Positions 7,649 through 32,000 are shown, numbered from the stretch's first letter. The stretch: 32,000 bases of DNA from Tannockella kyphosi (GCF_021054785.1 NZ_CP088239.1:720001-752000), one strand, 5' to 3'. The notes: generated from the letters alone by a model not told the origin. Numbers and translations: made by a program.

Positions 7649-7650
7649 AC

Positions 7651-9428: not shown

Positions 9429-9491
9429 AGATTATTTCGATAATCTTGAAATAAGTAAAACATGGTTGAAATACCATGCAATTTATATAAT
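9429..9491 (+). promoter_or_regulatory. Twin-hairpin conserved leader motif, copy A
   Basis: Hairpin 1 is AGATTAT-ttcg-ATAATCT (9429-9446). Hairpin 2 is CATGG-ttgaaata-CCATG (9461-9478), followed by CAATTTATATAAT. A second copy lies at 13183-13245 with a compensatory double change in hairpin 2. Confidence 0.55.
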
Positions 9492-9506
9492 GAATGGAGT
9501 TCTTGA

Positions 9507-9959
9507 ATGAAAAATAAGACAAAGAAGATATTTGCTATTTCAACTGTTATAGCTTTACTTGGAGTAATAGTATATTTTATAGTTGCTAATCCGTTGGTGT
9601 CTATTAATAATCAAAAATTGGAAAATTCGATTAAATCTATTGAAACTGAAGCAATACAATTAAACGATATTGTTCCTTTTGAATGGGATATTATGTATAC
9701 TTTTTCGCCCTATGCAAGTCAAGATGAGATAGAGCAAATTATTGGATTTGAAAGTGCAGATGTGAAAGAAAATAATATCAGCGAGGGAATGGTTCATTTG
9801 CTTTTTGTTAAAGATGATAAAGTAGTAGCAAGTGTGCTTGGATATAGTAGCAATTTAGGTTATAGTATAGATTTTACAGAGAAAATAACATATGCAGAAA
9901 ATGCACAATTCAGTGTAATAAATAGTGATGATGTTATAACCTTGAGCTACACAAAATGA
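9507..9959 (+). CDS. Membrane-anchored protein of unknown function
   Basis: 150 aa with one N-terminal TM helix (IFAISTVIALLGVIVYFIVA) and a GGAG SD upstream. No recognisable motif. Confidence 0.6.
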   Translation: MKNKTKKIFAISTVIALLGVIVYFIVANPLVSINNQKLENSIKSIETEAIQLNDIVPFEWDIMYTFSPYASQDEIEQIIGFESADVKENNISEGMVHLLFVKDDKVVASVLGYSSNLGYSIDFTEKITYAENAQFSVINSDDVITLSYTK

Positions 9960-10030: not shown

Positions 10031-10055
10031 ACCACTTCTACGGAGGTGGTTTTCT
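10031..10055 (+). terminator. Terminator-like hairpin immediately upstream of the 934-aa gene
   Basis: A 7-bp stem CCACTTC/GAGGTGG with a UACG loop (10032-10049), followed by TTTTCTTA. It is preceded by the conserved box AAAATAAATCTAATTAAA (10000-10017). Confidence 0.55.
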
Positions 10056-10087
10056 TATGCCCAAAAACAAGAAAGGAGCTATATAAT

Positions 10088-12892
10088 ATGGCTGAAAACG
10101 ATGTAAAACAATCTCCGAAAGAGAGATTAAAAGAAATTACCGACAGCATTGAAACTGGGATACAAAATCTTTTCGAGAGTGAAAAGTATATGCAGTATCT
10201 TAAAACCATGAGCAGATTTCACAAGTATTCCCTAAACAACACCATGCTCATTTCAATGCAAAATCCCGATGCGACTTTAGTTGCAAGTTTTAACAAATGG
10301 AAAGATACTTTTTCTCGTAATGTGAAGAAAGGTGAAAAAGGAATTAAGATTATTGCCCCAACACCTTACAAAATCAAAGAAGAACGAGAAAAACTTGATC
10401 CAATCACCAAAGCACCAGTCCTTGATGCTAACGGACAAATTGAATTAGAAGAAGTTGAAAGACAGATACCTATGTTCCGTGTGGTATCTGTCTTTGACGT
10501 TTCACAGACTTATGGTGAGCCACTCCCTACACTTGCTAATGATTTAACTGGAAATGTGGAACAATTCGATACCTTTATGGAAGCACTAAAACGCACTTCA
10601 ACAGTACCGATTGAGTTTAATCCAATAGCAGATGGCTATTATCATCTTGTAGATAAGAAAATTGTTATTCGTGAGGGAATGAGTGAAGTACAAACTATTT
10701 CAGCTCTTATTCATGAGATTGCACATTCGAGATTGCACGATTATGAATTTAAAAGACAGGCACAGCAAGAAGAAAATGCAGCACCTATTGAACCGAAAAG
10801 TCGTAATACCGAAGAAGTAGAAGCAGAAAGTATTAGCTTTGCTGTTTGTAACTATTATGGCATTGAAACAAGTGATAATAGTTTTGGTTATATTGCGAAT
10901 TGGAGCAAAGATAAAGAATTAAAGGAGCTTAAATCTTCTCTTGAAACAATCAATAAGACTTCATCAGAATTGATTACTTCTATCGACAAGCATTTTACAG
11001 AAATCACAAAAGAACATGAACAAGAAGTTGTTGTGGCTGTTCCACTTAGCAAAGAATTAGAAATTGCAAGTGCGATTGATAAATTTGCACAAGACTTTGA
11101 TCCTTATGAGTACAACGACCAAGTTGCAGATACAGAAAGTCACATCAATGAAATTGCCGATAATCTTAGAACTGGCAACACGAAAGCAATCAAAGATTAT
11201 TTAGTAGGTATTGATTTTAACGACCAACCTCATGAAAAGCTAAAGGCAAACAAACTTATGGAAGAAATCTATAAATATGAGATGTTCAACTATCCTCGTG
11301 AACTTGCCTATAAGATTGGTGATGGTTATCTTGCTATTCATGACTGCGATGAGGGATTTGATTACAGCTTTTATGATATGGACTTTAACCTAATTGATGG
11401 TGGTGTCTATGATGACATTGAACTTAACATTTACGAAGCAATTCATGAGGTTGCAGAATTTGATGATGGTTTTTCTATTTGGGATAGAGAAAATGTAGAA
11501 AAAGTTGACTATGAGGATTTAACAGAAAAAGCTGAAAATATAGAATTATCAAAAGTGGTAGGAACTGTAAAGTATAGTGATGTTACCAATGAGTTTGTAA
11601 TTTCATCACCACTATTTAAAGATGCTAACCTGCCACTATATACTAATCGTGAAGGTGAAAAGTTTGTCTTTGGTTTTGGTAATTTAGGTGGTGGCACAAA
11701 TGTATGGAACTTCCTTGATGAAACCAATAATGACTACACCAATGTGGCACATATTTCAGATACTGGAGAACTAAAGCTATTAGTCGATAATCTTCCCGAT
11801 ACTGCAAAAAAAGCACTTGAAGAAAAGGCAACAGAAATTCGTAGTGAAATTGAAACACAAATGAAAATGCCCGATCCAAATGTAACACTAGATGAAATGT
11901 TTGATTATGGTTATACAGCATTAGAACTTCTACCACTATCAAAAGAAAGAGCCTTAGAACTCTACAATGAGGATTTAACTATTTATGCCTTATATCCCGA
12001 TGATAGCGAAGGTATGGTTTTTGAATTAAGCGAGTTTGAGGAACATGAGGGTTATTTTGGTATCGAAGTGGTTGACTGGGAAAAATATTTAGACTTGCAG
12101 AAAATGAAGGAACATCAATGGAGCTTATCTTCACAAGAAGAAAAAGCCTTTGTAGAACGAAAAGACGAAAGTTTTGCTATTTATCAATTAAAATCGGGAA
12201 CTGAGTTTAGAGATTATCGTTTTACTGGTGCTGAAGAATTGGAACGCATGGGGAAAGAAATTGACAGAGATAATTACAATCTTATCTACACCGATGGACT
12301 TCAAAATGTAGAAAATGTAAGTCATGCTCTAGAGTGCTTATATTATGATTTCAACCACGATAAACCCGATGATTTTATCGGTCATTCTTTGTCAGTTAGT
12401 GACACCGTTGCTATCAATATGAATGGTGCTGTATCATATCATTATGTTGATACAGTAGGTTTTAAGGAGCTAGAACACTTTGTAGCTCCTAATCCCGACA
12501 ATCATTTAACTGGAGAGAAAATTGCTACTCCACGAGGGAATTTCTTTTTAACATCATTAAGTAAAGAAGAAATGCAGGCTCAAGGTTATGGTGTTCACCA
12601 TAATTCGGACGATGGCAGATATGCGATTATGGGTAATGGTACAATCGCTTATGCAGTAGCAAATGAAAATCCACTTAAAAATGCAGAAATTAGCACAGAG
12701 CAAAATTTCAATATGATTGACGGAACTCTAAACAATCAACCAACAGTTGCTGAACTGGAGCATGATGCAAAGAATGGTAAGCCTATTTCACTAATGGATC
12801 TACTCGATGCAACACGCAGGGAACAAAAACAACAACCAAAAGTAAAAAAAGAAAAGCAGGCACAATCTAAAAGTGCAGAAATGGAGCGATAA
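10088..12892 (+). CDS. ArdC-like polyvalent antirestriction protein (ArdC-N ssDNA-binding domain + HExxH metallopeptidase + YodL-like + DUF4316-like tail)
   Basis: SD AAAGGAG lies 10 nt upstream of ATG 10088; the track start (GTG 10046) is inside the terminator. ArdC-N pattern: YSLNNTMLISMQNPDATLVASFNKWKDTFSRNVKKGEKGIKI. HEIAH is at 10712-10726. A YodL-like block FAIYQLKSGTEFRDYRF and the tail NPLKNAEISTEQNFNMIDG are present. Confidence 0.8.
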   Translation: MAENDVKQSPKERLKEITDSIETGIQNLFESEKYMQYLKTMSRFHKYSLNNTMLISMQNPDATLVASFNKWKDTFSRNVKKGEKGIKIIAPTPYKIKEEREKLDPITKAPVLDANGQIELEEVERQIPMFRVVSVFDVSQTYGEPLPTLANDLTGNVEQFDTFMEALKRTSTVPIEFNPIADGYYHLVDKKIVIREGMSEVQTISALIHEIAHSRLHDYEFKRQAQQEENAAPIEPKSRNTEEVEAESISFAVCNYYGIETSDNSFGYIANWSKDKELKELKSSLETINKTSSELITSIDKHFTEITKEHEQEVVVAVPLSKELEIASAIDKFAQDFDPYEYNDQVADTESHINEIADNLRTGNTKAIKDYLVGIDFNDQPHEKLKANKLMEEIYKYEMFNYPRELAYKIGDGYLAIHDCDEGFDYSFYDMDFNLIDGGVYDDIELNIYEAIHEVAEFDDGFSIWDRENVEKVDYEDLTEKAENIELSKVVGTVKYSDVTNEFVISSPLFKDANLPLYTNREGEKFVFGFGNLGGGTNVWNFLDETNNDYTNVAHISDTGELKLLVDNLPDTAKKALEEKATEIRSEIETQMKMPDPNVTLDEMFDYGYTALELLPLSKERALELYNEDLTIYALYPDDSEGMVFELSEFEEHEGYFGIEVVDWEKYLDLQKMKEHQWSLSSQEEKAFVERKDESFAIYQLKSGTEFRDYRFTGAEELERMGKEIDRDNYNLIYTDGLQNVENVSHALECLYYDFNHDKPDDFIGHSLSVSDTVAINMNGAVSYHYVDTVGFKELEHFVAPNPDNHLTGEKIATPRGNFFLTSLSKEEMQAQGYGVHHNSDDGRYAIMGNGTIAYAVANENPLKNAEISTEQNFNMIDGTLNNQPTVAELEHDAKNGKPISLMDLLDATRREQKQQPKVKKEKQAQSKSAEMER

Positions 12893-13643: not shown

Positions 13644-16600
13644 ATGGCATTAAAACGAGAAGAAGTTGCCCAGTTGTATGAAAATACCTCTAGGCAAGTA
13701 ACCAGTAGTCTTGCGAATTGGACTAACTTTTTAGAAGTTGTTGGCAAGCTCTACAAATATCCTTACCATGAGCAGCTTATGATTTACGCACAAAAACCCG
13801 ACGCCACTGCTTGTGCTGAGTTCGGTTTATGGAACAATCGCATGAATAGGTATGTAAAACGAGGTACAACGGGTATCGCACTTATTGATCCGAGTAACGA
13901 TAATCAGAAAATCAAATATGTCTTTGATTTAGCAGATACGGGTGGCAAAGAAAATGCACAACGACCTTTGTTGTGGGAAATGCAAAATCACCATGAAAAA
14001 CCAATCCTTGAAATGCTACAAGATAAATTTGATGTATCAAGTGATAATCTGTATGAAGCAATCGACATCATTGCAACAACACTATCAAAAGAGTATTATG
14101 ATGACAACAAAAAGGATATTCCTTATCTTGTAGAAGATAGTTTTTTAGAAGAACTTGATGATTTCGATATTGAGCAAACTTTTAAAAATGCTTTATCAGT
14201 CAGTGTTGCTTATACTCTTATGAAGCGATGTGGACTTGATACAGAGGATAGATTTTCACATGAGGACTTCTTACCTATCTTCGATTTTAACACTACTGCT
14301 ACTGTTACATTCTTGGGTACAGCAGTAAGTGAACAAACGGAACAAGTATTTAGAGAAATTGCAAAAACCATTGTAAAAACCATTGTAAAAACTGAAAGGA
14401 GCATACAACATGAACAACTTGACTTACAAAACGGAGGGCGATTACAAAATCCCGAACTTGGAATTGAAACAAGAACAGCCAGTAACACTGGGCAAATATG
14501 GGAAAATGAGAAAAGCACATCTCATGGAACATCGCAAACCATTATTCAATCACCTACTACTGAGCGAGAAATTGACAGCTCATCTAGTGGAAATCGACCA
14601 AACAGCGAACAGACGAATGGAACAGTTGATGAAAGACCTCGAGAAGAAACAACCGTCACCGAACAAGATGACACACCAACTAGAATGGGTAGCACATCAG
14701 AACAGCCTACAAGCACAGGCAGAGGAAGTAATCTTGACGGAGTTGATTTACAGCTAAGACCTACTCTTGATGATATTGTGCTTGATGAAACTGTTAAGCC
14801 ACAGCAAATGAGCCTATTTCCAACCGAAGAACAACAGATTACAAGTATAGCCGACAGACAAAATGCCAACACACTCAGTGTGACAGCAAAAAGTCAGTCG
14901 GCTATTTCTATTTCAGAAGAAGAAATCATTCATGGCTTACTAAGAGGAACTGGATTTGTTGATGGGAAATTGCGTGTATATGATTTGTATCAAAAGGATT
15001 TATCACCTAAAGAAATTGCCAATTCTATCAAGTCCGAATATGGACATGGTGGAGGAAGTCACGACTATTTAGATGGTAATAGAGGTTGGATAGATTGTGA
15101 GCCTTCCAAAGGATTATTATTTAGTATTCATGGTATTGAGGGAAAATTCAAATTATCGTGGTCTGATGTTGAAAAGAAAATTAGGTCATTAGTTACTAAT
15201 GACAGTTATTTAACTATGGATGAAAAAGCAAAGTATGAAGAACAACAACTCGCTAAAGCAGGAATTGATAGTAAATTTTTCTTAGATGATGAAGAATTAT
15301 CGGGTATCGTAAATAACTTTATATTAGCTAGTGATGTAACGGATCAAACATTGCAACATCAAACAGATATTTATGAAGCATTTGTCACTCAAACAAGTCT
15401 TGAAGATAAATTGAGTTTGATTAAATCTACCTACGGAAATCTTGATACATCTTACGTTACTGAGGGTGGTGATTATCTTGAAGAAGTAAAATCCGACGTG
15501 ATTGGAATTAACTTTAAACGAGGTGGTCAGCCTTTTTCTGTTACCTATGATGATATGGTTACTCGTATTGATACTCTTATTGCAAATAACGATTATCCTC
15601 ATAAAGAAGATGTTGTAGAAATCACGCAAGATGACATTGACAATGCTATTTTAGAATGGAATGGTGATGAAGAAAGCAAAGCTCGTGTTCTATCTTATAT
15701 GCGTGAACATAGTCGTGAACGAGGTACTGCACTATGGTTACAAAATGAGTATGGCAATAATCTTCCTGCATTACTTGTTGTAAAAGGTGAATTATCTGAA
15801 AGTATCCCTTGGGCAAAAGTGCAGCGACAACTTGGCAAATTCATTGCTGAAGATAAATTCTTTGTGACAGATAGCAAAGATAGATACACCCTAGAACAGA
15901 CCTCAGATGCCTTTGAGGAGCCTTTTGCTGTAAGGGATAATCTAATCCCCGATAACTCACTAGACCGTTACCATGCAGTAGAGGGGCATATACAGACCTT
16001 TGAAACAGAGGAAGATGCACAAACAGTTATTGAGCAGTTAAATGATAATGCAAGATATACAGTTAAGTATATTACAGAGGGATTTGACAGTTCCTATGTA
16101 CTTGATGATAAAGAATTTGACATTGAGGGATTTGTAAAGCATGAATACGCAGATTTGTTCTATCAATCCTATGGAACTCGTGAAGAAGCACAAGCAGTTG
16201 CAGATAAACTTAATGCACTTTCAGAACATACTCCACCCGAGTTGATTTTCTTTGTTGATTTTAAAGATGTTGATATTGATTACTCAAAGTACAATGATAG
16301 AGATGTCATTGGTTATAATATTGATGGTGTTAAGTACACAGTTGGAAAAAGTGGGGATTTAACTTATACAACGCAAGAAACAGCTATTACACCTTATGGT
16401 GAAGTGCTAGGCGATAATATGACTGCTGATGTATATGAGAAATTCAAAGCTTGGAAAGAAAGCCTTTCAGCTCCACAAGAAGAAATCACAGAACCAGTAC
16501 AAGTGGTAAAAGGTGAAAACTTCCGTATTACAGATAGTGATTTAGGTCATGGAACAAAGTCTGAAAAATACAAAGCGAATATGCAAGCTATTAGAACTTT

Positions 16601-19600
16601 GCAAACACTTGAAACTGAAAATAGACTTGCAACAGAGGAAGAACAAATTATTCTTTCAAAATATGTAGGTTGGGGTGGATTACCCGAAGTATTCGAGGAA
16701 GGTCATGTAGGATATGCAGAACTTAAATCAAGACTTACAGACGAAGAATATGCAGCAGCAAGAGCAAGTGTTTTAAATGCTCATTACACTTCTCCAACTA
16801 TTATTAAATCTATCTATGATGCAGTAGAAAGTATGGGATTTGCTACTGGTAATATCCTAGAGCCTAGTTGTGGTGTTGGTAACTTCTTTGGTATGTTACC
16901 CGACAGTATGCAAAGTTCTAATCTTTATGGTGTGGAATTGGACTCTATTACTGGTCGAATTGCAAAACAGTTATATCCTAATGCAAATATTGACATCAAA
17001 GGTTTTGAGAAAACAGACTATCCCGACAGTTTCTTTGATGTGGCAATCGGTAATGTTCCATTTGGTGATTATGGCTTGCTCGAAAAAAGATATGATGCCC
17101 AAAACTTTAAGATACACGACCACTTCTTTGCGAAATCCTTAGATAAAGTTAGACCGGGTGGTGTGGTTGCTTTTGTAACAAGCAAAGGTACACTTGATAA
17201 ACGAAACTCTAATGTCAGAAAATATTTAGCACAAAGAGCCGAGCTTGTAGGTGCTATTCGTTTACCAAACAACGCATTTAAAGCCAATGCAGGAACAGAA
17301 GTTACATCAGATATTATCTTCCTACAAAAACGAGAAAACCCGATTGATATTCAACCAGACTGGGTGCATTTAGGTTACGATGAAAACAACGTGCCAATGA
17401 ACAGCTACTTTGTAGAAAACCCACACATGGTACTTGGTACTATGAAAATGGTCAGTGGTAGATTTGGTGAAGAAAGCACTTGTACACCGATTGAGAGTGC
17501 AGCTCTTTCAGAACAGTTACAAACAGCAATTCAAAACATTGTAGCAACTATCCCCGAAGTGGAATTTGACAATACAGATACCTTAGTTGACACCTCTATT
17601 CCTGCTGATCCAAACGTGAAAAACTATTCCTACACAGTAGTAAATGGCGAAGTATATTATCGTGAAAATTCACGCATGAGTAAACCCGAACTGAACTCCA
17701 CAGCAATAGGTCGTGTGAAAGGCATGGTTGCTATTAGAGAGTGCGTAAATGACCTAATTCGCTATCAATTAGATGATTACCATGAAGATGTTATCAAAGG
17801 CGAACAAGTGCGTTTAAACAACCTATATGACAACTTTACAAAGGAATATGGTCTTATCAATTCTCGTGGAAATGCTCTTGCATTTAATGGTGATAATTCC
17901 TACTATCTCTTAGCATCACTGGAAGATGTTAATGAGGACGGAACACTAAAAGCAAAGGCAGATATGTTTACCAAACGTACTATCAAACCTAGTGTGAAAG
18001 TTACTTCTGTTGATACTCCGTCAGAAGCTCTTGCTATTTCTATTTCAGAAAAAGCGAAAATTGATATGGAATTTATGTCACAGCTAACTGGAAAAACAGA
18101 ACAAGAATTATTTGAGAATTTGCAAGGAGTTGTTTTCCTAAATCCAATGTATGGATTTGGAAGTAATACAGCTGAGAAATATGTAACAGCAGACGAGTAT
18201 TTAAGTGGTAATGTGCGTGAAAAATTAGAATGGGCAAAACGTAGCATGGCTCTTTCTCCCGAAGATTATACAGTAAATGTAGAAGCACTAGAAAAGGCAC
18301 AGCCAAAAGACTTAGATGCAAGTGAAATTGAAGTGCGTTTAGGTGCTACTTGGATTGACAAAGATTATGTAGAACAATTTATGTATGAAACTTTTGAAAC
18401 ACCAAGTTGGTCAAGAGGTGACTATGGTATCAGTGTAAAATTTGCAAATTTTACTGGTGAATGGAGTATCCGTAATAAAAACCAAGCAGGATACCGAGAT
18501 GTTGCATCCACTTCTACTTATGGTACATCAAGAGCCAATGCTTATCGTATTTTAGAAGATACCTTAAATCTTCGTGATATTCGTATTTATGATACTGTGG
18601 AAGATGCAGACGGAAAAGAGAAACGAGTATTAAATAAGAATGAAACTACTCTTGCACAGCAAAAGCAACAACTTATCAAAGAGAAATTCAAGGAATGGAT
18701 TTGGAATGATCCCGAACGTAGACAACACCTTGTAAAGCTCTACAATGAAAAATTTAACTCCACAAGACCTCGTGAATATGATGGCAGTCATATTACTTTT
18801 GGTGGTATCAATCCCGAAATCAAGCTAAGAGAACATCAGATTAATGCGATTGCTCATATCCTCTATGGAAATAACGTATTACTAGCTCACGAAGTTGGTG
18901 CAGGAAAGTCTTTCGAGATGGTTGCAGGTGCAATGGAAAGTAAACGACTTGGACTTTGCAATAAACCTTTAATTGCTGTACCTAATCATTTGACCGAACA
19001 AATGGCAAGTGAATTTTTAAGATTATATCCTGCTGCTAATATTTTAGTAGCAACGAAAAAAGATTTTGAAACTCGTAATCGAAAGAAATTCTGTGCAAGG
19101 ATTGCGACTGGTGAATATGATGCAATCATCATGGGACATAGTCAATTTGAACGTATTCCCGTATCACTAGAAAGACAAGAACGATTACTTGATGAACAGA
19201 TTGATGAAATTACAAATGGTATTGCAGAAGTAAAAGCTAGTGGTGGTGAGAAGTTCACTATCAAGCAATTAGAACGTACAAAAAAAGGCTTAGAAAAACG
19301 ATTAGAGAAATTACAAGCCTTAGATCGTAAAGATGATGTTGTTACCTTTGAGCAATTAGGTGTAGATAAGTTGATTGTAGATGAAGCTCATGCTTACAAG
19401 AATGGATTTGTATTTACCAAAATGCGTAACGTGGCAGGTCTTGGCTCTAGTGAAAGTCAAAGGTCAGCAGATATGTTTATGAAATGTCGCTATCTTGATG
19501 AAATTACTGGTGGAAAAGGTGTCGTATTTGCAACGGGTACACCCGTCAGCAATAGTATGACGGAGCTATATGTTATGCAAAGATATTTACAATACAACAC

Positions 19601-21488
19601 TCTAAAACAAGCAGGATTACTTCATTTTGATGGTTGGGCATCTACCTTTGGCGAAACGACTACTACCCTTGAAATCAATCCACAAGGAAGTGGGTATCGT
19701 GCAAGAACTCGTTTTGCTAAGTTCTTCAATCTTCCCGAACTTATGAATATGTTTAAGGAAGTTGCCGACATCAAAACAGCCGACCAATTAAACCTACCAA
19801 CTCCCGAAATTATCTATGAAACTGTATCAGCAAAACCTACGGAATTGCAAAAAGAAATCGTACAAGAGCTTTCTAAACGTGCAGGACGAGTACAAGCAAA
19901 TCTTGTAGATCCTTCAGAAGATAATATGCTTACCATTACCAATGACGGGCGAAAGTTAGGACTTGACCAAAGGGTATTTAACCCAATGCTACCCGATGAT
20001 CCCGACAGTAAAGTAAACACTTGTGTCAGCAACATTTATGACATTTGGCAAGAAACAAAGGAAGATAGATTAACTCAATTACTATTTTGTGATTTATCAA
20101 CTCCAAAGCCGAAACCAAAGGATGTTTTAAAAGTAGCAAAAGGCGAAAACATGGGCATCAATGGTGCAGAAGTTAATGCACTAGAATATGGTGTTGACAT
20201 CGAAGAAGAAGCTACCTTAATTGAAAAGGAAATGCCTTTTAGTGTGTACCATGACATCAAAGATAAGTTAATTGATTTGGGTGTTCCCGAAGAAGAAATT
20301 GCCTTTATTCACGATGCTAAAACAGAAGTTCAGAAGAAAGAATTATATAACAAAGTTCGTAATGGTGATGTAAGGGTAATGCTTGGCTCTACTTCTAAAT
20401 GTGGTAGTGGTATGAACGTACAAGATAGACTTGTGGCACTCCATGACCTTGATGCTCCTTGGCGTCCGGGTGATTTACGTCAGAGAAGTGGTCGTATTGA
20501 AAGGCAAGGTAACATGAATAAGCAAGCAAAGATTTTTCGCTACGTTACGGATTCAACCTTTGATTCGTATTTGTGGCAAACTCTTGAAAGTAAGCAGAAA
20601 TTCATTAGTCAGATTATGACCAGTAAATCCCCAGTTCGCTCATGTGATGACCTTGATGAGTCGGCATTATCCTATGCAGAGATTAAAGCTCTATGTGCAG
20701 GAAATCCCAAAATAAAGTTAAAGATGGATTTAGATATTGAGGTAGCTAAGTTAAAATTGCTAAAGGCAAGTCACCAAAGTACCAAGTATCGACTGGAGGA
20801 TCAACTACTTAAATATTATCCCGAAAGCATTAAGAAAAATGAAGATTATATTGTTGCATTTGAAAAAGACCTTGTAACTTTAGGGGATAACATTCCTCAA
20901 GGAGAGGATTTCTTACCGATGACGATAAAAGGAGACAGGTTAATAGATAAGGAGAATGCAGGTGCAGCACTTCTCGCTTGTGTGAATGAGGTTATTGGGA
21001 GAGAAAGTGTAGAAATCGGTGCGTATCGTGGCTTTTCTATGCATTTAAGTTATGATAGCTTTCACAATGAACATACGGTTACTTTAAAGGGGGCAATGAG
21101 CCACACGGTTGCTCTTGGGAAAGATCTAAGAGGTAATCTGACTCGTATAGATAATGTGCTTGAAAGCATGAATAAAAGGCTAGAAGGTGTAAAAGCACAG
21201 CTTGAAAATCTTCGTAAACAACAAGCAAATGCAGAAATCGAAAAGGAGAAACCATTTCCACAAGAGCAAGAATTAAAAGATAAGTCAGAACAACTAGCAG
21301 AATTAGATGCGGAATTGAATATGAGTGGTGGAGCCAATGAGGAACTAGTGGAACATGAGAATACCAAGATAGCAAAATCCTCACGTCCTTCTGTACTGGA
21401 TACGCTCAAATCTATGCCAAAGCAAAAGATAGAGCCAAAGCCAAAGATAGAGCCAAAGCCAAAGCGAGAGTTGCAGGAGGTAAGGTAA
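13644..21488 (+). CDS. Giant polyvalent protein: ArdC-N-like head, N6-adenine DNA methyltransferase, SNF2/SF2 helicase
   Basis: SD AGGAGG is upstream of ATG 13644. Head: [40 protein letters not shown]. MTase motif I is [12 protein letters not shown] (16857-16892) and motif IV is NVPF (17052-17063). Helicase motif I is GAGKS (18897-18911), DEAH is at 19380-19391, and motif VI is [10 protein letters not shown] (20481-20510). Confidence 0.9.
14410..14757 (+). CDS. TnpV-like ORF embedded in the +1 frame of the giant gene
   Basis: 115 aa with SD AAAGGAG (14395-14401) 8 nt before ATG 14410. It aligns end to end with the TnpV at 1437-1823: GDYKIPNL / [32 protein letters not shown] / EWV / [11 protein letters not shown]. 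Confidence 0.55.
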
Positions 21489-23856: not shown

Positions 23857-25257
23857 ATGGCTACATCAAGGTTAATACCGATGCATAAAAACAAAGGGAA
23901 GAGTATTGCAAAATGCTTAGCAGATAGAACAGATTATGCGAAGAATTCTGAAAAGACCAATGCAGGGGAATATGTGTCATCTTATGAATGTGATCCAAGA
24001 ACTGTACAAGGGGAATTCATGTTGTCAAAGAGAGCTTATCTTGATATTACAGGACGAACACAAGAGAGTGATGTGATTGCGTATCAGATACGACAATCAT
24101 TTCGACCAGGGGAGATTACACCCGAACTTGCTAATAAATTAGGATATGAACTTGCAATGAATTTTACAAAAGGGAAGCACGCATTTATCGTAGCAACTCA
24201 TGTGGATAAGGCTCATATTCATAGTCATATTATCTTTAATTCTACGTCATTAGATTGTACAAGAAAGTTCAGAAACTTTTGGGGTAGTACCAGTGCTGTA
24301 AGAAAATTATCTGATAGAATATGCTTAGAAAATGGTCTTTCAATCGTAGAAAATCCTAAGCCGTCACGTGGGCATTATGGTAAATGGTTAGGAGATAAAA
24401 AATCGTTAAATCACTCTGATAAAATTAGAATGAGTATAGATAGCACGCTACAGAAAAAACCACAGACCTTTGAAGAATTTCTGCACCTTATGGAACTAGC
24501 AGGGTATGAAATTAAGAGGGGAAAACATATTGGGTTTAAGAGTGCAGAACAAGGCAAATTTATACGTTTTCGTTCATTAGGAAAAGGATACTCACAAGAA
24601 GAAATTCAATCAATCATCAGTGGGAAAGCAATACCGAGAGAGCAGAACAGTAGCAAGCAGAATTATAGAAAATCAATAAATTTACTAGTAGATATTCAAG
24701 TAAAAATCAATGAAGGAAAAGGTGCGGGATATGAGCAGTGGGCGAAGATATACAATCTAAAACAGATGGCTCAAACTATAAATTTCTTACGAGAAAATGA
24801 TTTGCTAGACTACTCAAATCTTGAAGAACGAGCAGAGGAAATCACTGGGAATTTTGAAAGATTAAATGCAGAAATTAAGTCAGCAGAGAAACGTATGGGA
24901 GAGATACAAGTGCTACGAACTCATATCATCAATTATATGAAAACAAAAGATATTTATACCGATTATCGCAAGGCAGGGTACTCTAAGAACTTCTATGAAG
25001 AGTATGAAAGTGAGTTGATATTGCATAAAGCAGCAAAGACTGCTTTTGATGAATTAGGAACGAAAAAACTTCCAACAATGAAGTCATTACATGGGGAATA
25101 TGCTGAGCTATTATCAGCGAAAAAAAAAGCATATGTTATCTATAAAAGTATGAAGAAAGATATGCAAGAAATACTTCGAGCAAAAGAAAATGTTGACCGT
25201 ATTTTGGAACTCAAAGAGGAACAAAAGGGCAAAGAAAAAACGCAGGAAGCAAGGTAA
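23857..25257 (+). CDS. Relaxase/mobilisation nuclease (Relaxase PF03432-type, MOBP-like)
   Basis: 466 aa with the His-triad block FIVATHVDKAHIHSHIIFNS and an N-terminal Tyr-containing region. SD GAAAGGAGAG is upstream. The C-terminal half is coiled coil. Confidence 0.85.
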   Translation: MATSRLIPMHKNKGKSIAKCLADRTDYAKNSEKTNAGEYVSSYECDPRTVQGEFMLSKRAYLDITGRTQESDVIAYQIRQSFRPGEITPELANKLGYELAMNFTKGKHAFIVATHVDKAHIHSHIIFNSTSLDCTRKFRNFWGSTSAVRKLSDRICLENGLSIVENPKPSRGHYGKWLGDKKSLNHSDKIRMSIDSTLQKKPQTFEEFLHLMELAGYEIKRGKHIGFKSAEQGKFIRFRSLGKGYSQEEIQSIISGKAIPREQNSSKQNYRKSINLLVDIQVKINEGKGAGYEQWAKIYNLKQMAQTINFLRENDLLDYSNLEERAEEITGNFERLNAEIKSAEKRMGEIQVLRTHIINYMKTKDIYTDYRKAGYSKNFYEEYESELILHKAAKTAFDELGTKKLPTMKSLHGEYAELLSAKKKAYVIYKSMKKDMQEILRAKENVDRILELKEEQKGKEKTQEAR

Positions 25258-25464
25258 TTGCTCCTGCGTCTACAGCATTGGTTACAGTGCGTGGCTCACA
25301 ATTTATTGTGTCAATGGGGATTGGGGTAACCCCAACAAGTAAGCGTGTGGAAGCCGAAAGGGCGACCACAGGCATTGCTTGCCAGTATTTGTTCTAAGGG
25401 AAGATAAATATCTAATAATATATTATTATCATAAATACATCCATTTACTTTCATAAAAAAACTC

Positions 25465-28400
25465 CTAAATTAAGCTATCCTTAACATCAAACTTCGTTTT
25501 GAAATCTTCATAGCTATTTACCCAGTCAAATTTAATGAGATTGGATACAGCTTCAAAGTGGAGAGTACCACATTTGATTTTGTTTTGTTCAACCTCAGTT
25601 AAATCACTACGTTCTTTACCAGCTTTTGTTTCGACTATAAAGTAGATACCTAATGTTGTATCATTAGTCCCATCTTCTTTGCAGATTATTGCCCAGTCGG
25701 GAGAGTAGTTTCCGTAAGGAGTATCTATCACAAATCCACCTTTTTTAAGCTTTGTAAACAATACGATGTTTGAATTTTGCTCAAGTTTTTCGGCAAACTC
25801 TTTTTCACCTTTACTATCAAGTTTGTAATATTCGTTAAGAGCTGATTTTCTGTTTTTATCAGCTTTAAATACTTTCCACTCATCAATAAAATCTTCTTCT
25901 GTTATAGTGTCTACTGCGAAGATTTGCCCCTCATTTAGTTCGTAACCCTCGATGACTTCATAAGAATATACACTATTAGCTTTCGCATCATTCAGTGCTG
26001 TTAAAATCTTTTCCGTAATCTTATCCAATATGTCCGTGAAGTTTAAAGCTTCTCTTTTTTCTATGCCACTCAGTATTTTAAAAATCGCAAGTCGAGGGAG
26101 CATAGTGTGGTACATGATATAGTTGACAATTTCAAAATCACTTTTTGGAACAACCTTTGAACCTACCTCAATATCAAACTCCTTGTCACCCGATTTTTCA
26201 AGTTCAAACATACCAACATCAGAGAAGTTCGCTTTACTGGTTGTTATATTTACAGTTTGCTTAATAGCGAAAAATTGCAGATAATTATTTATATCATTTA
26301 TCATCGAATTGATAAAATCATCTTTGTTGATATTGCATCTATATAGTGTTTTCTTTTTTAGCTTTTCACAAAGGTTGCTATACAGCTTTTCAAATTCATC
26401 TTCGGTAACAAATGCTCTCACTTTGTTATTGTAAGATGGATTATCCTTGTTTTTAACCTCGATACGTTTACTGCCTTTTTCAACCATTAACTGTACGAAC
26501 TGTTCTTTTAGTTTAATGCTATGTTCCTGTAAAACTTCATCTGTAAAGATAAGAGTTTCAATAGCTTTCATAGTTTTTTCTGCATTATTTTTTAAAATAT
26601 TATTGCTATCAAAGATACCATTGTTTTGAAGTTCTATTTTGAAAGTATCAACTAAATGAGGAGTGATGTATGCTTTCGGAATACCTGCTTTAGTAAGAGC
26701 AGCAGTAAGTACATCAGCAGTAACTTCATTCTTGTTGAAGTTCATACTATCATTAAAGTCATCTTGTAGCATACGAGAGAAGTTCTCATAGCTATCGTTT
26801 GCGATAACAGTTAATTCGTTGATGTTTGGATCTAAACATCTATTACCCAATGTATCAACGGGCAATCTTAGACCACGACCAATTTCTTGTTTTTTTGCAA
26901 TTTCGCTACTGCCATTTTTAAGAGTACAAAGGGTAAATACATTTGGATTATCCCAACCCTCACGAAGTGCAGAGTGAGAGAAGATAAAGCTAAGTGGTTC
27001 ATCAAATGAGATAAGTTCATCTTTCTTTTCTAAAATCAAGCTAATAGCTCTATCAATATCTTCTTGTGATTTTGCAGTAACATCAATGCCTTTTTTATCG
27101 TATTGTACTTCTGATATATTTTGCTTTTTATCAAGAGCAAAATAACCCTCACGAACAGCTAATACATCATCATAGGATTTAAAGCAATCTTTATATTTTT
27201 CTATTTTAGATTTGTTGTTAATAATAAATGCTTGATATTCTTCATCAAAAATTCTTAGGTACTCACCACGAGTATCTTCTCTATCATAGTCACGTACATT
27301 CTTTACAGCATCAATAAAAAACAAGGTAATTGCTTTGATGTTTTTACCTGCTTTAAGCATTGATAATTGCTTTTTAAAATGGCTGTGTATAGCTAGTCTT
27401 ATTTGAATACGGACTGCTTGTATATCATCAAGACCATTGTTGCCTTCACCAATATTTAGCCTAAGCTCGCCACTATCAGTGAAAATTCTTAGTGGATTTT
27501 CTTTGTGAGGATTTTCAGCAATACGCATATTTTTGTATTGAGGGAGTCCACCCGAAATATCATGTAGTGAAGTGTTACCAATAACATCGACAGTAGTGAA
27601 GCGAATGCTATCACCTTGCTTTTGGGTAAACATCTCAATTCGTGCTTTTAAATCCTTTGTAAATGAAATATAACGGATATAAGGGTAGTCCCTATCAATA
27701 ACACCATTTACTGTTTTAACACCGATTTTCTTTACCAAATCATTTTGATAAGCAGCATAAGAGTCTAACTTATATATTTGGTTATATAGTTGTTTATGCG
27801 TAGCAGAATAACGTAAAAGAAATAGTGGCTCTAGTTGTTCTAATGCTTGAAGTGACTTGGATTTTTTGCCTTTTTGCCCCTCGATTTTTTGTGGCTCGTC
27901 AATGATAATAACTGGGTTAATTGCTTTAATATCGTCCCATAAAATTTGCCCGTATTCATCATCAGTACGGATTTTATTATTGTCTTTATTAAATGCTTGG
28001 ATGTTCATAACACAAATACTTAAATCGGTAGATTCAACAAGGGAACTACTGATTTTTTTTAGATTATTACTATCATAAACAAAGCTATGCTTATCTATAT
28101 CAAGTCCGTATAATCTTTGGAAGTGTTCATTTAATTGTTCAATGGATTTTTCTACACCTTTACGAATTGCAATACTTGGTACTACAATCATAAATTTTTT
28201 TAGATTGTATTCTTTGTATAATTCTAAAATGGTACGCAGATACACATAAGTTTTACCAGTACCAGTTTCCATTTCTATTGTGAAGTTATTACCCTCTAGG
28301 AAGTTATCAGCAAATAGGTTGTTATTTAGTTGCACATTTCGTAGATTGTTAAGTACCTTTGTCCCGATGACGATACCCTCATTACGAATTGGATCTCCCT

Positions 28401-28542
28401 CAGCAAATTTTCTAATACGTTCGGGTCTATAAATACTGTCGGTTCTTCTTGGTGAACCCTTGAATAAATCCACAGTGGATTTAATCGCTTTTAATTGATA
28501 ATCTAATTCATCATCAAATTGGAAATTTATTCTTTTTGCCAT
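25465..28542 (-). CDS. res: Type III restriction enzyme, Res subunit
   Basis: 1025 aa. Helicase motif I is METGTGKTYVY and motif II is IIIDEPQK. The C-terminal PD-(D/E)xK block is YSPDWAII...YFIVETKAG. SD GAGAGGAG is upstream. Confidence 0.9.
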   Translation of the reverse strand: MAKRINFQFDDELDYQLKAIKSTVDLFKGSPRRTDSIYRPERIRKFAEGDPIRNEGIVIGTKVLNNLRNVQLNNNLFADNFLEGNNFTIEMETGTGKTYVYLRTILELYKEYNLKKFMIVVPSIAIRKGVEKSIEQLNEHFQRLYGLDIDKHSFVYDSNNLKKISSSLVESTDLSICVMNIQAFNKDNNKIRTDDEYGQILWDDIKAINPVIIIDEPQKIEGQKGKKSKSLQALEQLEPLFLLRYSATHKQLYNQIYKLDSYAAYQNDLVKKIGVKTVNGVIDRDYPYIRYISFTKDLKARIEMFTQKQGDSIRFTTVDVIGNTSLHDISGGLPQYKNMRIAENPHKENPLRIFTDSGELRLNIGEGNNGLDDIQAVRIQIRLAIHSHFKKQLSMLKAGKNIKAITLFFIDAVKNVRDYDREDTRGEYLRIFDEEYQAFIINNKSKIEKYKDCFKSYDDVLAVREGYFALDKKQNISEVQYDKKGIDVTAKSQEDIDRAISLILEKKDELISFDEPLSFIFSHSALREGWDNPNVFTLCTLKNGSSEIAKKQEIGRGLRLPVDTLGNRCLDPNINELTVIANDSYENFSRMLQDDFNDSMNFNKNEVTADVLTAALTKAGIPKAYITPHLVDTFKIELQNNGIFDSNNILKNNAEKTMKAIETLIFTDEVLQEHSIKLKEQFVQLMVEKGSKRIEVKNKDNPSYNNKVRAFVTEDEFEKLYSNLCEKLKKKTLYRCNINKDDFINSMINDINNYLQFFAIKQTVNITTSKANFSDVGMFELEKSGDKEFDIEVGSKVVPKSDFEIVNYIMYHTMLPRLAIFKILSGIEKREALNFTDILDKITEKILTALNDAKANSVYSYEVIEGYELNEGQIFAVDTITEEDFIDEWKVFKADKNRKSALNEYYKLDSKGEKEFAEKLEQNSNIVLFTKLKKGGFVIDTPYGNYSPDWAIICKEDGTNDTTLGIYFIVETKAGKERSDLTEVEQNKIKCGTLHFEAVSNLIKFDWVNSYEDFKTKFDVKDSLI

Positions 28543-28578
28543 GATTTAACTCCTCTCAAATTTTATATATGTGGCTCA

Positions 28579-30555
28579 TTAAATAAATTCCACTGTATAG
28601 GTCTGTTTTTTCTCACCACTGTTGCGTTCTACAAGTGCTTTTAGATGTCTGAACGAATAATCTTTAAGGTCAATATCATCTTTAAAGGCACTATCTCTAA
28701 ACACAAATTTAATAGGCAGTGGGGCAAGGGCTGCAATTTTTTCTAGAAGTTCAGTTGTAATTTCTGTTTCAAGGCATACAAGATAAGAGCTTGCATATAG
28801 GTAGGTTCTTTCGCCAATATCATCCAATATTTCAAGTGTATCAGATAGGGGAACATCTTTTTGACGGAGCATAATTTCATATACAACATCAATATCTTTT
28901 GCACCAAATACAAAGTCCATACGATCACAATCATTTGCATATTCTAATACACTTTGTTGAACTGAATTTTCAATTATATTCCACTTAATATTCGTATCAG
29001 TAGTACGGAACACTTTAAAGCCGATATCAGGCACTTTTTTAGGTGGCTCATCAAGTTTTAATTGCTCGTTATTTTGTTCAATTTCAAGTTTTATTTTTTC
29101 GCCAGCACGTCGGATGCGTTCTTTTCCTATTTCGCAAATGTTTTTATAACCAGCGTTATAAGCTTCTGATTTTTCGTCGGTTATTTCTGGAAACTGCACC
29201 ATAATGAATTTACGATTGCCACCATCTTCGGCATTAAGTTGCATTACTGCGTGGGCTGTTGTGGCAGAGCCGGAGAAGAAGTCGAGGATGATGTCATTAT
29301 CACCTTGACTTATTATTTGAATAAAAAATTTAATCATTTGAGAATATTTAGGGAAATCAAAAAAATTATTGCCCATAAGTAATTTCAACTCATCAGTTCC
29401 TTTTTTTGTTGTAGCTAAATTGCTTAATACAGAGCGAGGATTGATAATAGTTTTTTCTTTTTCATAGAATAAAACTCCACTGCTATTAAAATAAAAATCT
29501 GTTACTCGTTGCCCTTTACTGTCAAAAACTTCATGTCCCTTAATAAAGTTTTCAACTTGGTTTTTCATTGCAAAACCAGCTTTAAGTGTAGTGTCTTTGA
29601 CAAGTTTTCCATTTATAAATTGCATTTCATCTGATAGTATATATGTCTTTTCGCTACCACCAATTTCACCAGTGAATGTTGCATTTTCTCCTTCAAACCT
29701 AAATCCTTTAGGAAAAATAATTTCAACAGCAGGATTTTTTACAGAGATTTTTTTCAATGCCCCATGTCTAATATATTCTCCTTTATTGTAGTTTTTAAAA
29801 TTAGGTAACATATTTTTGTTCCTACTATAACATAATACATATTCATGCCCTCTAGTAAAATGTCCAGCAGTTGTACCTGTTCCCAAATCCCATATTAAAG
29901 TAGATATATTATTTTCTTGACCAAAAACTTCATCACAAACTTTCTTCAAATTATCAACTTCATAATCATCAATACTAATAAAAACAACGCCATCATCAGT
30001 AAGTAAATTTTTTGCAATCTTTAGTCTTGGATACATCATATTAAGCCAGTTTGCGTGGTATTTGTTTTTTGATTTTTCGTTTTTTTGTAGTGGGTTTCCG
30101 TCCTCGTCTGCCACACCCTCTGCAACATCACTTTCTTTTTTATCCATTGCGAATTTATCGTTATATACAAAGTCATTACCAGTGTTATATGGTGGGTCTA
30201 TGTATATCATTTTGATAGAACCATAGTAATTTTGGCGAAGAAGTTTCAGCACTTCAAGGTTATCGCCCTCAATATATAGGTTTTCAGTTTCTAGTGGGTT
30301 TTTGCTACCCGCGGCTATATATTTTAATGTTCTGTTATAAACATCTTCTTGTGATATTTTCTTTGCAGATTGTTTGCCCGACCAAGTAAGCTCGTACTTT
30401 TCGCTGTCCACTTCCTCAATCTTCCCCAGTTCTTCCTTTAATGCCTCAACATCAAGCATTCCGTCCTTAACAGCACTAGGGAAAAGCTGTGCTAAGGCTT
30501 TTAGATTGTCACCGACAATGTTGTTTATTCCTTGTGGTATTTTATTGTTTTCCAT
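28579..30555 (-). CDS. mod: Type III DNA methyltransferase, Mod subunit (N6-adenine, beta class)
   Basis: 658 aa. Motif IV IYIDPPYNTGNDF precedes motif I FFSGSATTAHAV. SD AAAGGAG lies inside the 3' end of the upstream gene. Confidence 0.9.
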   Translation of the reverse strand: MENNKIPQGINNIVGDNLKALAQLFPSAVKDGMLDVEALKEELGKIEEVDSEKYELTWSGKQSAKKISQEDVYNRTLKYIAAGSKNPLETENLYIEGDNLEVLKLLRQNYYGSIKMIYIDPPYNTGNDFVYNDKFAMDKKESDVAEGVADEDGNPLQKNEKSKNKYHANWLNMMYPRLKIAKNLLTDDGVVFISIDDYEVDNLKKVCDEVFGQENNISTLIWDLGTGTTAGHFTRGHEYVLCYSRNKNMLPNFKNYNKGEYIRHGALKKISVKNPAVEIIFPKGFRFEGENATFTGEIGGSEKTYILSDEMQFINGKLVKDTTLKAGFAMKNQVENFIKGHEVFDSKGQRVTDFYFNSSGVLFYEKEKTIINPRSVLSNLATTKKGTDELKLLMGNNFFDFPKYSQMIKFFIQIISQGDNDIILDFFSGSATTAHAVMQLNAEDGGNRKFIMVQFPEITDEKSEAYNAGYKNICEIGKERIRRAGEKIKLEIEQNNEQLKLDEPPKKVPDIGFKVFRTTDTNIKWNIIENSVQQSVLEYANDCDRMDFVFGAKDIDVVYEIMLRQKDVPLSDTLEILDDIGERTYLYASSYLVCLETEITTELLEKIAALAPLPIKFVFRDSAFKDDIDLKDYSFRHLKALVERNSGEKKQTYTVEFI

Positions 30556-31269
30556 TTATTTTTTCTCCTTTAATTTTAACAAAATGGTATTTGTTTCTTT
30601 CAATTTCTCCTCTAGCATATCTTTAAGTCTTACTATTTCGGGTTTATAGTCAAGTATGGCTGATTTATACAATGACATATCAAAACAAAAATCGAGATTA
30701 TGCTCCTTATTTCGTTCATCTATAAAATTACAATTAATTCGTACATCAGTGGCATTCACAAACTTCTTGTCTGAGCTTTTATATTCCGTATCTATTATAT
30801 CGACATAAATTATATATTGTTGTTTCGGTGGCAGTGAAATAGGGGTTTGTTCTAATTTTGATATATGTTCAAAGAAAATTTCTTTATATATGCATTTTTT
30901 TGCTTCTTGATTAAATTTGATTTTTAATTCTTTAGCACTTGAAATTCCCGTATTTTCAACAATAAAAGCTAATCTACTTTCAATAAATTTAAAATTTATA
31001 ATTATATTAGGCTTGTTCATTTCATCATAAAGTCTGAAGTTTTGCCAAAGTGCCAACGCTCCTAAACAAACAGTTCCTATAAACGTCAAAAAACTACCAT
31101 AAAATGATAACAACTCATAATCTTTAAAAGATGTTACGGTGAAACAAAACCCCTTCATAGGGTATATAAGGTTAATTATTTGTGGAATAAAAGCTGAAAT
31201 AATTATAATAACTACTATAACTATAATCCAAAACCACCATTGTTTATAAAAAGGTTTTTTCTTATTCAA
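30556..31269 (-). CDS. Two-TM membrane protein with a beta-rich C-terminal domain and coiled-coil tail, unknown function
   Basis: 237 aa. TM1 is WWFWIIVIVVIIIISAF and TM2 is FLTFIGTVCLGALALWQN. The stop codon abuts the mod start codon. Confidence 0.7.
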   Translation of the reverse strand: MNKKKPFYKQWWFWIIVIVVIIIISAFIPQIINLIYPMKGFCFTVTSFKDYELLSFYGSFLTFIGTVCLGALALWQNFRLYDEMNKPNIIINFKFIESRLAFIVENTGISSAKELKIKFNQEAKKCIYKEIFFEHISKLEQTPISLPPKQQYIIYVDIIDTEYKSSDKKFVNATDVRINCNFIDERNKEHNLDFCFDMSLYKSAILDYKPEIVRLKDMLEEKLKETNTILLKLKEKK

Positions 31270-31271
31270 AT

Positions 31272-32000
31272 CTAATCCTCCTCAAATTTCAATTCGTTTT
31301 CATGTCCATAAGAGCATTCTGATATATTTTCATTATTCACGCTAACAGTTATATATTGTTTGAACGATATTCCGGTGATAGTAGTATTAGTGATATATAG
31401 TCTGAAGCATAAACCTCCTAGTGGTTTTTCCCAAAAGTCTTTGTATGTTTCATTCTTAAAATATATAAACATACAAAACAACTCATCTTCATGTTGGTTC
31501 AAGAGTGTTGAGATCCCTGCTTTAGGATGGTTTTGATTAAAACAAACAGCTTGCTCCACCGAAACAGTATCGGTTTTAATGCCTACGATTTCAATTCTAT
31601 CAAATGCTATATGCCTTATAATGGCTTGTGACGTATTGGCAAGTTTGAAATTAACAACTTTACAATATTGCTGAATTTCATAATCTTTCTCATTGTCAAT
31701 ATCGATGTTCAACGTTATATAGTTATTCTTTAATTCCACTGTTTCGCCTGTATGAACACTATTAATTTTATTATGAGATTTAGAAAAATAATACCTTTCC
31801 ATTGGAGCTGTGATAGATGTTGAATTTCTTGCACAGAATGTAGTCTGTCCAATTACAACATCTACAATCTTTATCACGGGTAATAAACTTTGTGCATTGA
31901 TTTTTTGAAAGTAATTATTTTCTTTACTTAGGTTCTCATTGATTTTATTTAGTTTCTTATTTTGATAAAAAGCCAATGAACCCAAGGTAACAGTTCCAAT
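31272..32000 (-). CDS. Paralogous two-TM/beta-rich protein (N-terminus beyond the window edge)
   Basis: The frame is open to nt 32000 (IGTVTLGSLAFYQN...), and the track's TTG start at 31985 is internal. The edge peptide matches TM2 of the neighbour (FIGTVCLGALALWQN). The stop lies 2 nt from the next start. Confidence 0.65.
   Translation of the reverse strand: MGTVTLGSLAFYQNKKLNKINENLSKENNYFQKINAQSLLPVIKIVDVVIGQTTFCARNSTSITAPMERYYFSKSHNKINSVHTGETVELKNNYITLNIDIDNEKDYEIQQYCKVVNFKLANTSQAIIRHIAFDRIEIVGIKTDTVSVEQAVCFNQNHPKAGISTLLNQHEDELFCMFIYFKNETYKDFWEKPLGGLCFRLYITNTTITGISFKQYITVSVNNENISECSYGHENELKFEED

Follow-up and report, generated by a model that had tools for sequence, protein, structure and literature searches.

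A type III restriction–modification operon of Tannockella kyphosi extended upstream of mod by two paralogous membrane genes

The right-hand end of a 32,000-nucleotide stretch of DNA from Tannockella kyphosi (GCF_021054785.1, NZ_CP088239.1:720001-752000; hereafter the window) carries a type III restriction–modification (R-M) operon on the minus strand, at positions 25465-32000, in which two genes for membrane proteins, here called A and B, precede the methyltransferase gene mod and the restriction gene res. A first-pass annotation of the window had described a type III operon extended upstream by two paralogous membrane genes with coupled junctions, and the present analysis supports that description. 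The operon is carried by an integrative mobile element in a low-GC Firmicute; it has at least seven genes, not four, and A and B belong to an unnamed protein family that combines a conserved membrane hairpin with a hypervariable C-terminal domain.

Organization of the operon within the window

The features of the operon within the window are listed below, with positions counted from the first letter of the window.

25465-28542, minus strand: res, 1025 amino acids, type III restriction subunit, last gene of the operon
28579-30555, minus strand: mod, 658 amino acids, type III DNA methyltransferase
30556-31269, minus strand: gene A, 237 amino acids, TTG start; membrane module at residues 1-86, then a beta-sandwich and a terminal amphipathic helix
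31272-32000, minus strand: gene B, 3' 729 nucleotides of a 918-nucleotide gene; 305 amino acids at full length
30565-30570, minus strand: ribosome-binding site of mod, AAGGAG, within the last codons of A, 9 nucleotides ahead of the ATG
31277-31283, minus strand: ribosome-binding site of A, GAGGAGG, within the last codons of B, 7 nucleotides ahead of the TTG
25246-25264, minus strand: terminator-like hairpin about 200 nucleotides past res (consensus scan only)

The packing of four minus-strand genes with gaps of 0-36 nucleotides, as first described, was confirmed by the open reading frames (ORFs) and by reading of the junctions, the gaps being 36 nucleotides between res and mod, 0 between mod and A and 2 between A and B. 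The stop codon of B (TAG, 31274-31272) is followed by the start of A (TTG, 31269), and the stop codon of A (TAA, 30558-30556) directly abuts the ATG of mod (30555). The earlier statement that the membrane gene abuts mod and holds its Shine-Dalgarno sequence is therefore borne out by the sequence. The sequence GAGAGGAG lies ahead of res in the 36-nucleotide interval between mod and res, and the window edge cuts B within its second membrane helix. In a consensus scan, no terminator-like sites were found between the operon genes, the sole such site inside the unit being a weak 5-pair stem in gene A, and promoter-like sites in the unit were fewer than in shuffled sequence. The hairpin past res is a candidate end of the transcription unit; on the plus strand it overlaps the last codons of the relaxase gene (23857-25257).

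Domain matches and gene order identify Mod and Res as a genuine type III pair. Mod matches Pfam N6_N4_Mtase (9e-31) and, with full-length coverage, PADLOC MTase_III (1.6e-167). Res combines an N-terminal ResIII/DEAD helicase (Pfam ResIII, 2.2e-18) with a C-terminal endonuclease (RE_endonuc, 2.9e-25) and matches PADLOC REase_III at 1.3e-190; its gene directly follows mod, as in type III systems generally. Such systems use ATP to cleave unmethylated DNA in which two sites are inversely oriented, and their Mod subunit carries out hemi-methylation.

The operon beyond the window

Because near-identical metagenome contigs continue past position 32000, the unit could be followed further upstream. A 99% variant of A (P0001) and an identical copy of B (P0004) are encoded on four such contigs, L001-L004 (fetched loci are given L numbers throughout), which do not differ from one another in shared stretches and match the window at 99.0-99.7% identity across the overlap. 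An exact-sequence lookup found no recorded gene product identical to A. On L003, 99.6% identical to the window over the overlap, genes for a SNF2 helicase and a DUF4391 protein lie upstream in the same orientation, which gives the gene order SNF2 helicase, DUF4391, X, B, A, mod, res. The first-pass annotation was right that the operon reaches past the window, where B and more genes continue; its count of four genes was too low. Tight or overlapping junctions are also found in the 99%-identical contigs: X and B overlap by ATGA, X abuts the gene of the 238-residue DUF4391 protein, and the latter gene overlaps the end of the helicase gene.

The helicase N-terminus lies beyond the ends of all contigs, and the helicase comparisons cover the C-terminus, which matches the PADLOC model 'HKD+Snf2' at 6e-81 and, less strongly, DISARM DrmD models. 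The 238-residue product is recorded with the Pfam domain DUF4391; a full-text literature search returned nothing informative on this domain, the two papers that it found having the term in neither title nor abstract. Gene X (L003 1717-2565, minus strand, just past window position 32000) encodes a 282-residue soluble protein with no Pfam, PADLOC or PDB-sequence match. No homologue of X was found in any other fetched locus, and the gene appears to be unique to this element.

The ORFs of A and B are intact in the four near-identical contigs. The automatic call on L002-L004 starts A at Met38 (200 amino acids), dropping the first membrane helix; we prefer the TTG start (237 amino acids), because the first membrane helix aligns with that of family members.

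A four-gene cassette as the baseline

The extra genes had first been counted against a plain mod-res pair. This baseline is corrected by SNF2-DUF4391-Mod-Res cassettes found on plasmids. A DUF4391 protein near the consensus gave tblastn matches on 48 plasmids of PLSDB; the DUF4391 protein of the window's own element gave no match in the same search. Annotated cassette regions were inspected on seven plasmids, six proteobacterial and one archaeal. Five of them, an Escherichia coli IncF plasmid and plasmids of Shewanella, Acinetobacter, Providencia and Paraburkholderia, have helicase, DUF4391, mod and res in uninterrupted succession; the Desulforapulum plasmid has helicase, DUF4391 and mod uninterrupted, with no res gene listed after mod. 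Nothing is found at the DUF4391-mod junction in any of these six proteobacterial cassettes. On the archaeal plasmid (L035, Methanomethylovorans), a gene for an unrelated soluble protein of 245 amino acids occupies that junction (10077-10814); a further 'restriction endonuclease' gene follows res on this plasmid.

The Res, Mod and helicase proteins of the window's operon gave full-length tblastn matches to the seven plasmid cassettes at 30-44% identity (Res 30-33%, Mod 34-41%, helicase C-terminus 38-44%). The core of the operon is thus a widespread four-gene type III-like cassette, SNF2-DUF4391-Mod-Res. We place it in the class of E. coli EcoR22I, to which it is likened by the SNF2 association, the sequences compared being those of the plasmid cassettes; gene order and the presence of DUF4391 are the same, and the proteins of the plasmid cassettes are homologous. 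The difference from the plasmid cassettes lies at one junction, which holds X, B and A here and is empty in the six proteobacterial ones. Since the four-gene baseline is uninterrupted, the novelty of the operon consists of three genes inserted between DUF4391 and mod, not of two genes added to mod-res. EcoR22I itself, a SNF2-helicase-associated type III system located in a mobile defence hotspot, restricts unmodified lambda DNA through its mod-res genes (bioRxiv 10.1101/2023.04.06.535777).

A and B belong to an unnamed family of membrane-hairpin proteins

When full-length B (taken from the 99.6%-identical contig) was compared with A, the similarity was confined to an N-terminal module of about 85 residues with 43% identity; with the part of B that lies in the window, the alignment was limited to the second membrane helix (11 of 17 positions identical, E 1e-4). 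The C-terminal domains of A and B have no detectable similarity to each other. In the module, a basic N-terminus leads into a first membrane helix, which a short loop connects to a second one with the motif FYG-x2-L-x-F-x-GT-x2-LG-x-LA-x2-QN. Fifteen positions are invariant in the seed alignment of the module: P29, Y36, FYG 56-58, L61, F63, GT 65-66, LG 69-70, LA 72-73 and QN 76-77.

A profile of the module was searched exhaustively against 1.84 billion cluster representatives and matched 1,284 of them at E<=1e-3 (399 at E<=1e-10), A and B matching the profile at 4.8e-40 and 1.3e-39, respectively. Family members are mostly 220-340 amino acids long, and the module is followed by unrelated variable domains of 100-250 residues. 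Among 125 members with long tails, 7744 of 7750 pairs were detectable by BLASTP in the N-terminal module, and 135 of 7750 in the C-terminal part, which fell into 62 groups; some tails are beta-rich and others helical. The pairing of A and B as paralogues with a common motif in the second helix, as first proposed, is therefore real; the beta-rich domain that they were thought to share is not, their C-termini being unrelated, hypervariable across the family and helical in some members. We found no library model or paper that describes the family, its scale or its repeated capture in SNF2-type III operons.

An AlphaFold2 model of A (predicted local distance difference test score, pLDDT, 70.8) has helices at residues 7-38 and 50-84, a beta-sandwich at 89-196 and a terminal helix at 211-236, the last corresponding to the coiled-coil tail noted earlier. 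The model of B is poor (pLDDT 46) and has the same helical hairpin, followed by strands. Charged residues were counted in 164 members: the flank before the first helix holds on average 3.4 K+R and 0.7 D+E, the loop of about 20 residues 1.8 K+R and 2.7 D+E, and the stretch after the second helix 4.0 K+R and 3.2 D+E. These counts follow the positive-inside rule, from which we infer that the variable domain is probably cytoplasmic (N-in/C-in).

Library searches gave no assignment. Neither A nor B has a family match in Pfam, PADLOC or NCBIfam, the module profile matched no sequence of a solved structure in the PDB, and no functional motif was found in either protein. There was no match at E<=1 to the Pfam SLATT models, nor to effector models of S-2TMbeta/Cap15, of antiphage systems that signal by cyclic oligonucleotides (CBASS) or of Pycsar in Pfam and PADLOC, libraries that presumably include the Pfam S_2TMBeta and PADLOC Cap15 models. 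The best PHROG matches (E 3.6e-5, unknown function; E 0.0016 and 0.03, both 'superinfection exclusion') are restricted to residues 2-28 (2-26 for the two exclusion families), and they are no evidence of homology, because they cover only the hydrophobic first helix. In tblastn searches, B had no match among PLSDB plasmids, and B and P0003 had none among 50,697 isolated phage genomes.

Several candidate identities were rejected. Kir/KirBac channels, archaeal pilins and C2 domains, which appeared as weak Foldseek matches to A in the PDB, resemble it only at the level of architecture, with TM-scores of 0.2-0.3. A potassium channel was discarded on account of the loop of about 12-20 residues, which has no pore helix or filter, and a PrrC-like protein on account of the missing ATPase domain.

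Family genes often appear as two adjacent ORFs (L009/L016 9914-10677; L040 92-745; L048 3330-4183; L052 8001-8817), and many database matches of 80-190 residues are fragments of such split genes.

Genomic contexts of family members

About 23 informative, non-redundant loci were available for the analysis of genomic context. At least five independent, divergent type III operons carry a family member between the helicase or DUF4391 gene and mod. These operons, a relative of one of them, and the other contexts are as follows.

Window: B and A between DUF4391/X and mod, A directly ahead of mod, ribosome-binding site of mod inside A
L013 (Acutalibacteraceae): member directly ahead of mod, the two genes overlapping
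L014 (Gastranaerophilaceae): no DUF4391; member and a Fic gene between helicase and mod
L010: close relative of L014, contig ending before any mod gene
L015 (Clostridium): member the sole gene between DUF4391 and mod, ribosome-binding site of mod inside its end
L017 (metagenome): member the sole gene between DUF4391 and mod, ribosome-binding site of mod inside its end
L030: member a few genes downstream of another type III mod-res pair
L012: member by an AAA_15/21 ATPase and an Mrr nuclease
L006: member by an AAA_13 ATPase
L052: member by an EVE-HNH protein
L044: member in a GmrSD/NERD/kinase-helicase island
L048: member upstream of a 769-residue N6_Mtase gene
L019 group: member by HipA and a nucleoside-deoxyribosyltransferase-like gene
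L051: member (7237-8372) overlapping a DUF5677 gene by ATGA, in a TIR/Band_7 island
L027, L028, L031, L040 and L046: prophage-like elements, member by integrases or recombinases, or by a dGTPase-like gene near lysis genes

The contexts are dominated by defence and mobile-element genes. The five or more type III operons, together with L030, bear out the linkage of homologues to R-M loci on which the first-pass annotation had made its proposal depend. Around three quarters of the informative contexts have no type III R-M system, and several have no R-M system at all; members are found with type III R-M much more often than a random gene would be, but not obligately. The L015 and L012 members, which lie in differing defence contexts, have C-terminal domains of one type.

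Two further observations concern individual loci. Further components of the L051 island are IS110, a resolvase, a TIR_2 protein, a Band_7/zinc-ribbon protein and genes of the amidoligase/GATase type. The L010 and L014 membrane proteins share 93% identity in the C-terminal part, and the bins are assigned to Bacillota and Gastranaerophilaceae, respectively; this likeness across phyla suggests a recent transfer or a binning error.

A cargo position between DUF4391 and mod

The junction that is empty in the proteobacterial plasmids also receives other genes. In L013, a complete PDC-M50 candidate system lies between DUF4391 and the membrane gene (8937-9946); PDC-M50A is a 157-residue membrane protein, and PDC-M50B is a ThsB-type TIR protein (PADLOC, 2e-63). 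In L014, the gene between the membrane gene and mod encodes a Fic/helix-turn-helix protein that matches the PADLOC single-gene candidate PDC-S72 at 1e-163. The PDC-S72 genes are located as follows.

L014 3870-4943: Fic, PDC-S72
L026 766-1839: Fic, PDC-S72
L010 3898-4971: Fic, PDC-S72

Together, PDC-M50, PDC-S72, the archaeal 245-residue gene and gene X mark the junction as a variable cargo position within the operon. A comparable case is the helicase operon hmaABC of Halomonas, in which defence genes are inserted between the genes of a helicase/methylase defence operon (PMC11232893). The host operon here is type III-like rather than Hma, and its inserts have coupled junctions, without promoters of their own or gaps.

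The cassette may have a second place for cargo in the interval between mod and res, where small genes are found in three loci.

L013 12660-13442: small gene between mod and res, 260 amino acids
L014 6823-7428: small gene between mod and res, 201 amino acids
L017 12810-13442: small gene between mod and res, 210 amino acids

The L013 gene has a weak match to PDC-S31 (1e-4), and BLAST showed no relationship of the L017 gene to those of L013 and L014.

Discussion

The reading that we favour, tentatively and with somewhat less than even confidence, is that A and B are autonomous anti-phage cargo that acts at the membrane and is expressed together with restriction, with abortive infection (Abi) as the likely kind of mechanism. 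Of the first proposal that the locus combines restriction with a membrane effector or an exclusion function, the general idea remains plausible, with membrane-acting defence favoured, and the cyclic-nucleotide route found no support. Both termini of A and B would lie on the cytoplasmic side, where the variable domain could detect an infection cue, for example a phage protein. The conserved hairpin, in which small residues (G, T, G, A) form one face and a Q-N pair is invariant, might then oligomerise, and the membrane would be permeabilised or depolarised and the infection aborted. Each protein would be a single-gene defence module that acts independently of Mod or Res; read-through and translational coupling would give its expression together with the restriction genes, so that one mobile operon would carry two defence layers.

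Several points weigh against this reading. No structural or sequence link connects A or B to a characterised pore-former or Abi effector: Foldseek searches with the model of A gave nothing below E 1e-3 in the PDB, and the best matches in a viral library were all uncharacterised proteins. The N-in/C-in topology is predicted from a single criterion, the positive-inside rule. Many family copies are truncated or are split by a frameshift or premature stop, which suggests frequent decay or sequencing or assembly errors. The sample of contexts is small and biased to close relatives of A and B, since these two proteins had supplied the patterns for the search, and it includes three housekeeping or metal-resistance neighbourhoods with no defence or mobile-element neighbours (L011, L009/L016, L039). 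Finally, the member is always upstream of mod in the type III operons and directly so in four of the five (window, L013, L015, L017), with the ribosome-binding site of mod inside the 3' end of the member in three operons and a gene overlap in a fourth; this fixed position and these coupled junctions fit a functional coupling to R-M better than random hitchhiking.

Such a coupling is the basis of an alternative that we regard as unlikely, though it fares best among the rivals: A and/or B would be kept inactive by the Mod-Res or SNF2-DUF4391 complex and freed by anti-restriction proteins such as Ocr or ArdA to damage the membrane, and would be for type III what RonA is for Ronin or PrrC for EcoprrI. 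The place that the member takes time and again in five divergent type III operons, upstream of the methyltransferase gene and with coupled junctions, speaks for it, as does the member in L048, which lies upstream of an unrelated N6_Mtase gene and is apparently split, its second ORF overlapping the methyltransferase start. There are also precedents. RonA is a 61-residue membrane protein whose gene is in tight linkage with hsdMS and which anti-restriction proteins release. The mod-res genes of EcoR22I cause cell death in the presence of Ocr (bioRxiv 10.1101/2023.04.06.535777), and a type IC locus contains PrrC (PMC12707154). In Ronin and EcoprrI, as here, an accessory gene is tightly linked to R-M genes, and RonA presumably disrupts the inner membrane.

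The likeness has limits. RonA, compared here by its description, has one predicted membrane helix and always occurs with hsdMS, and PrrC is a soluble ATPase-nuclease, whereas A and B (237-305 amino acids) have two membrane helices and a variable domain, lie in type III loci and belong to a family often found without R-M. The contexts lacking type III R-M, or any R-M, count against an obligate partner. The C-terminal domains are wholly different between operons with homologous Mod and Res, which is hard to square with a conserved docking surface, unless docking occurs via the membrane module. The slot also holds candidate systems regarded as autonomous, and in EcoR22I mod-res alone sufficed for the cell-death response (bioRxiv 10.1101/2023.04.06.535777).

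A broader form of this idea, that the hairpin defines a widespread new family of effectors that guard R-M systems, docked to SNF2-associated type III complexes and occasionally to others and let loose to depolarise the cell once phage anti-restriction proteins disable restriction, seems to us improbable. If it were true, the position upstream of mod in all five operons would be accounted for, the choice of phage inhibitor sensed would lie with the hypervariable cytoplasmic domain, and the 'decoy' logic of RonA and PrrC would no longer be limited to type I but would reach type III systems and Gram-positive gut bacteria.

Equally improbable in our view is exclusion without cell death, in which A and B would block phage DNA injection or the entry of conjugative DNA and thereby serve the element itself. 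Superinfection exclusion (Sie) genes classically lie beside prophage integrases, as do lactococcal sie2009 and Streptococcus thermophilus ltp. Family members likewise adjoin prophage integrases or recombinases (L028, L031, L040, L046, L027), they too are small membrane proteins, and the window is itself a conjugative or mobilisable element. The weak PHROG matches named for superinfection exclusion point the same way; they are, however, insignificant and span only the hydrophobic first helix. Sie proteins of Gram-positive bacteria are externally exposed, whereas the predicted topology of A and B leaves only a loop of about 20 residues outside and places the large variable domain in the cytoplasm. 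The lack of any match in the isolated phage genomes also argues against exclusion.

A role outside defence is slightly less probable still. A and B could tether the restriction complex to the membrane near sites of DNA entry, or they could be decaying hitchhikers without a role, as the many split or truncated copies, the three housekeeping or metal-resistance contexts and the lack of a functional motif would allow. Against this stand the conservation of the module, which has 15 invariant seed positions and spans at least 1,284 clusters, the intact ORFs in the four near-identical contigs and the prevalence of defence and mobile-element genes in the contexts; a tether would be expected to have a conserved enzyme-binding domain, yet the C-terminal domains are hypervariable.

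That A and B are cyclic-nucleotide effectors of the S-2TMbeta/Cap15 or Pycsar type, opened by the product of the gene at 7651-8373, is very improbable and largely refuted by context. The layout is analogous, with two N-terminal membrane helices and a beta-rich soluble domain, a sensor-plus-effector logic is plausible, and the product of that gene has motifs that by eye resemble a class III cyclase. Membership of the S-2TMbeta or cyclic-nucleotide families, once suspected from this architecture, found no match among the Pfam and PADLOC effector models, and the C-terminal domain is unconserved and in some members helical. To our knowledge, the known cyclase-effector pairs of CBASS and Pycsar are adjacent; no locus here has an adjacent cyclase, and the proposed link of A and B to the gene at 7651-8373 fails on its distance of 22 kilobases, its opposite strand, its lack of library matches and its absence from the 53 fetched loci.

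The finding is already known in kind, both as an R-M operon with an embedded extra defence layer and as membrane effectors with a sensor domain, and a second, suicide-type layer in R-M operons (PrrC, Ronin, EcoR22I) is a current theme of phage defence. To this it adds a family without a library model, comprising at least 1,284 clusters, which recurs as a part of type III-like operons in gut anaerobes. The stretch immediately upstream of mod, in most cases the DUF4391-mod junction, can be mined for defence genes, among which X and the small genes between mod and res may be counted. A and B are simple single-gene candidates for experiment, and the common baseline of this class is a cassette of four genes, with SNF2 and DUF4391 components beside mod and res.

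Other genes of the window

The remainder of the window (1-25257) is a mosaic mobile element; positions 1-25000 gave no megablast match to PLSDB plasmids. Its genes include the following.

163-3836: serine recombinase, TnpV and MobA/MobL
3919-5856: Dam-class methylase gene
5876-7648: FokI-like endonuclease gene, following the Dam-class methylase gene
7651-8373, plus strand: cyclase-like gene, 240 amino acids, 2 nucleotides after the FokI-like endonuclease gene
8720-9370: topoisomerase fragment
10046-12892: polyvalent protein with ArdC-N, LPD16 and YodL domains
13644-21488: SNF2/Eco57I-like methylase-helicase, 2614 amino acids
21489-21824: NikA
23857-25257, plus strand: relaxase

The cyclase-like resemblance of the 7651-8373 product consists of the motifs FIDILGF, MSDSVVL and RGGISIG, recognized by eye. 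The protein has no match in Pfam, PADLOC or solved-structure sequences, and no homologue was found in the 53 fetched loci (550 kilobases), most of which carry family members. The gene is another accessory gene coupled to an R-M pair.

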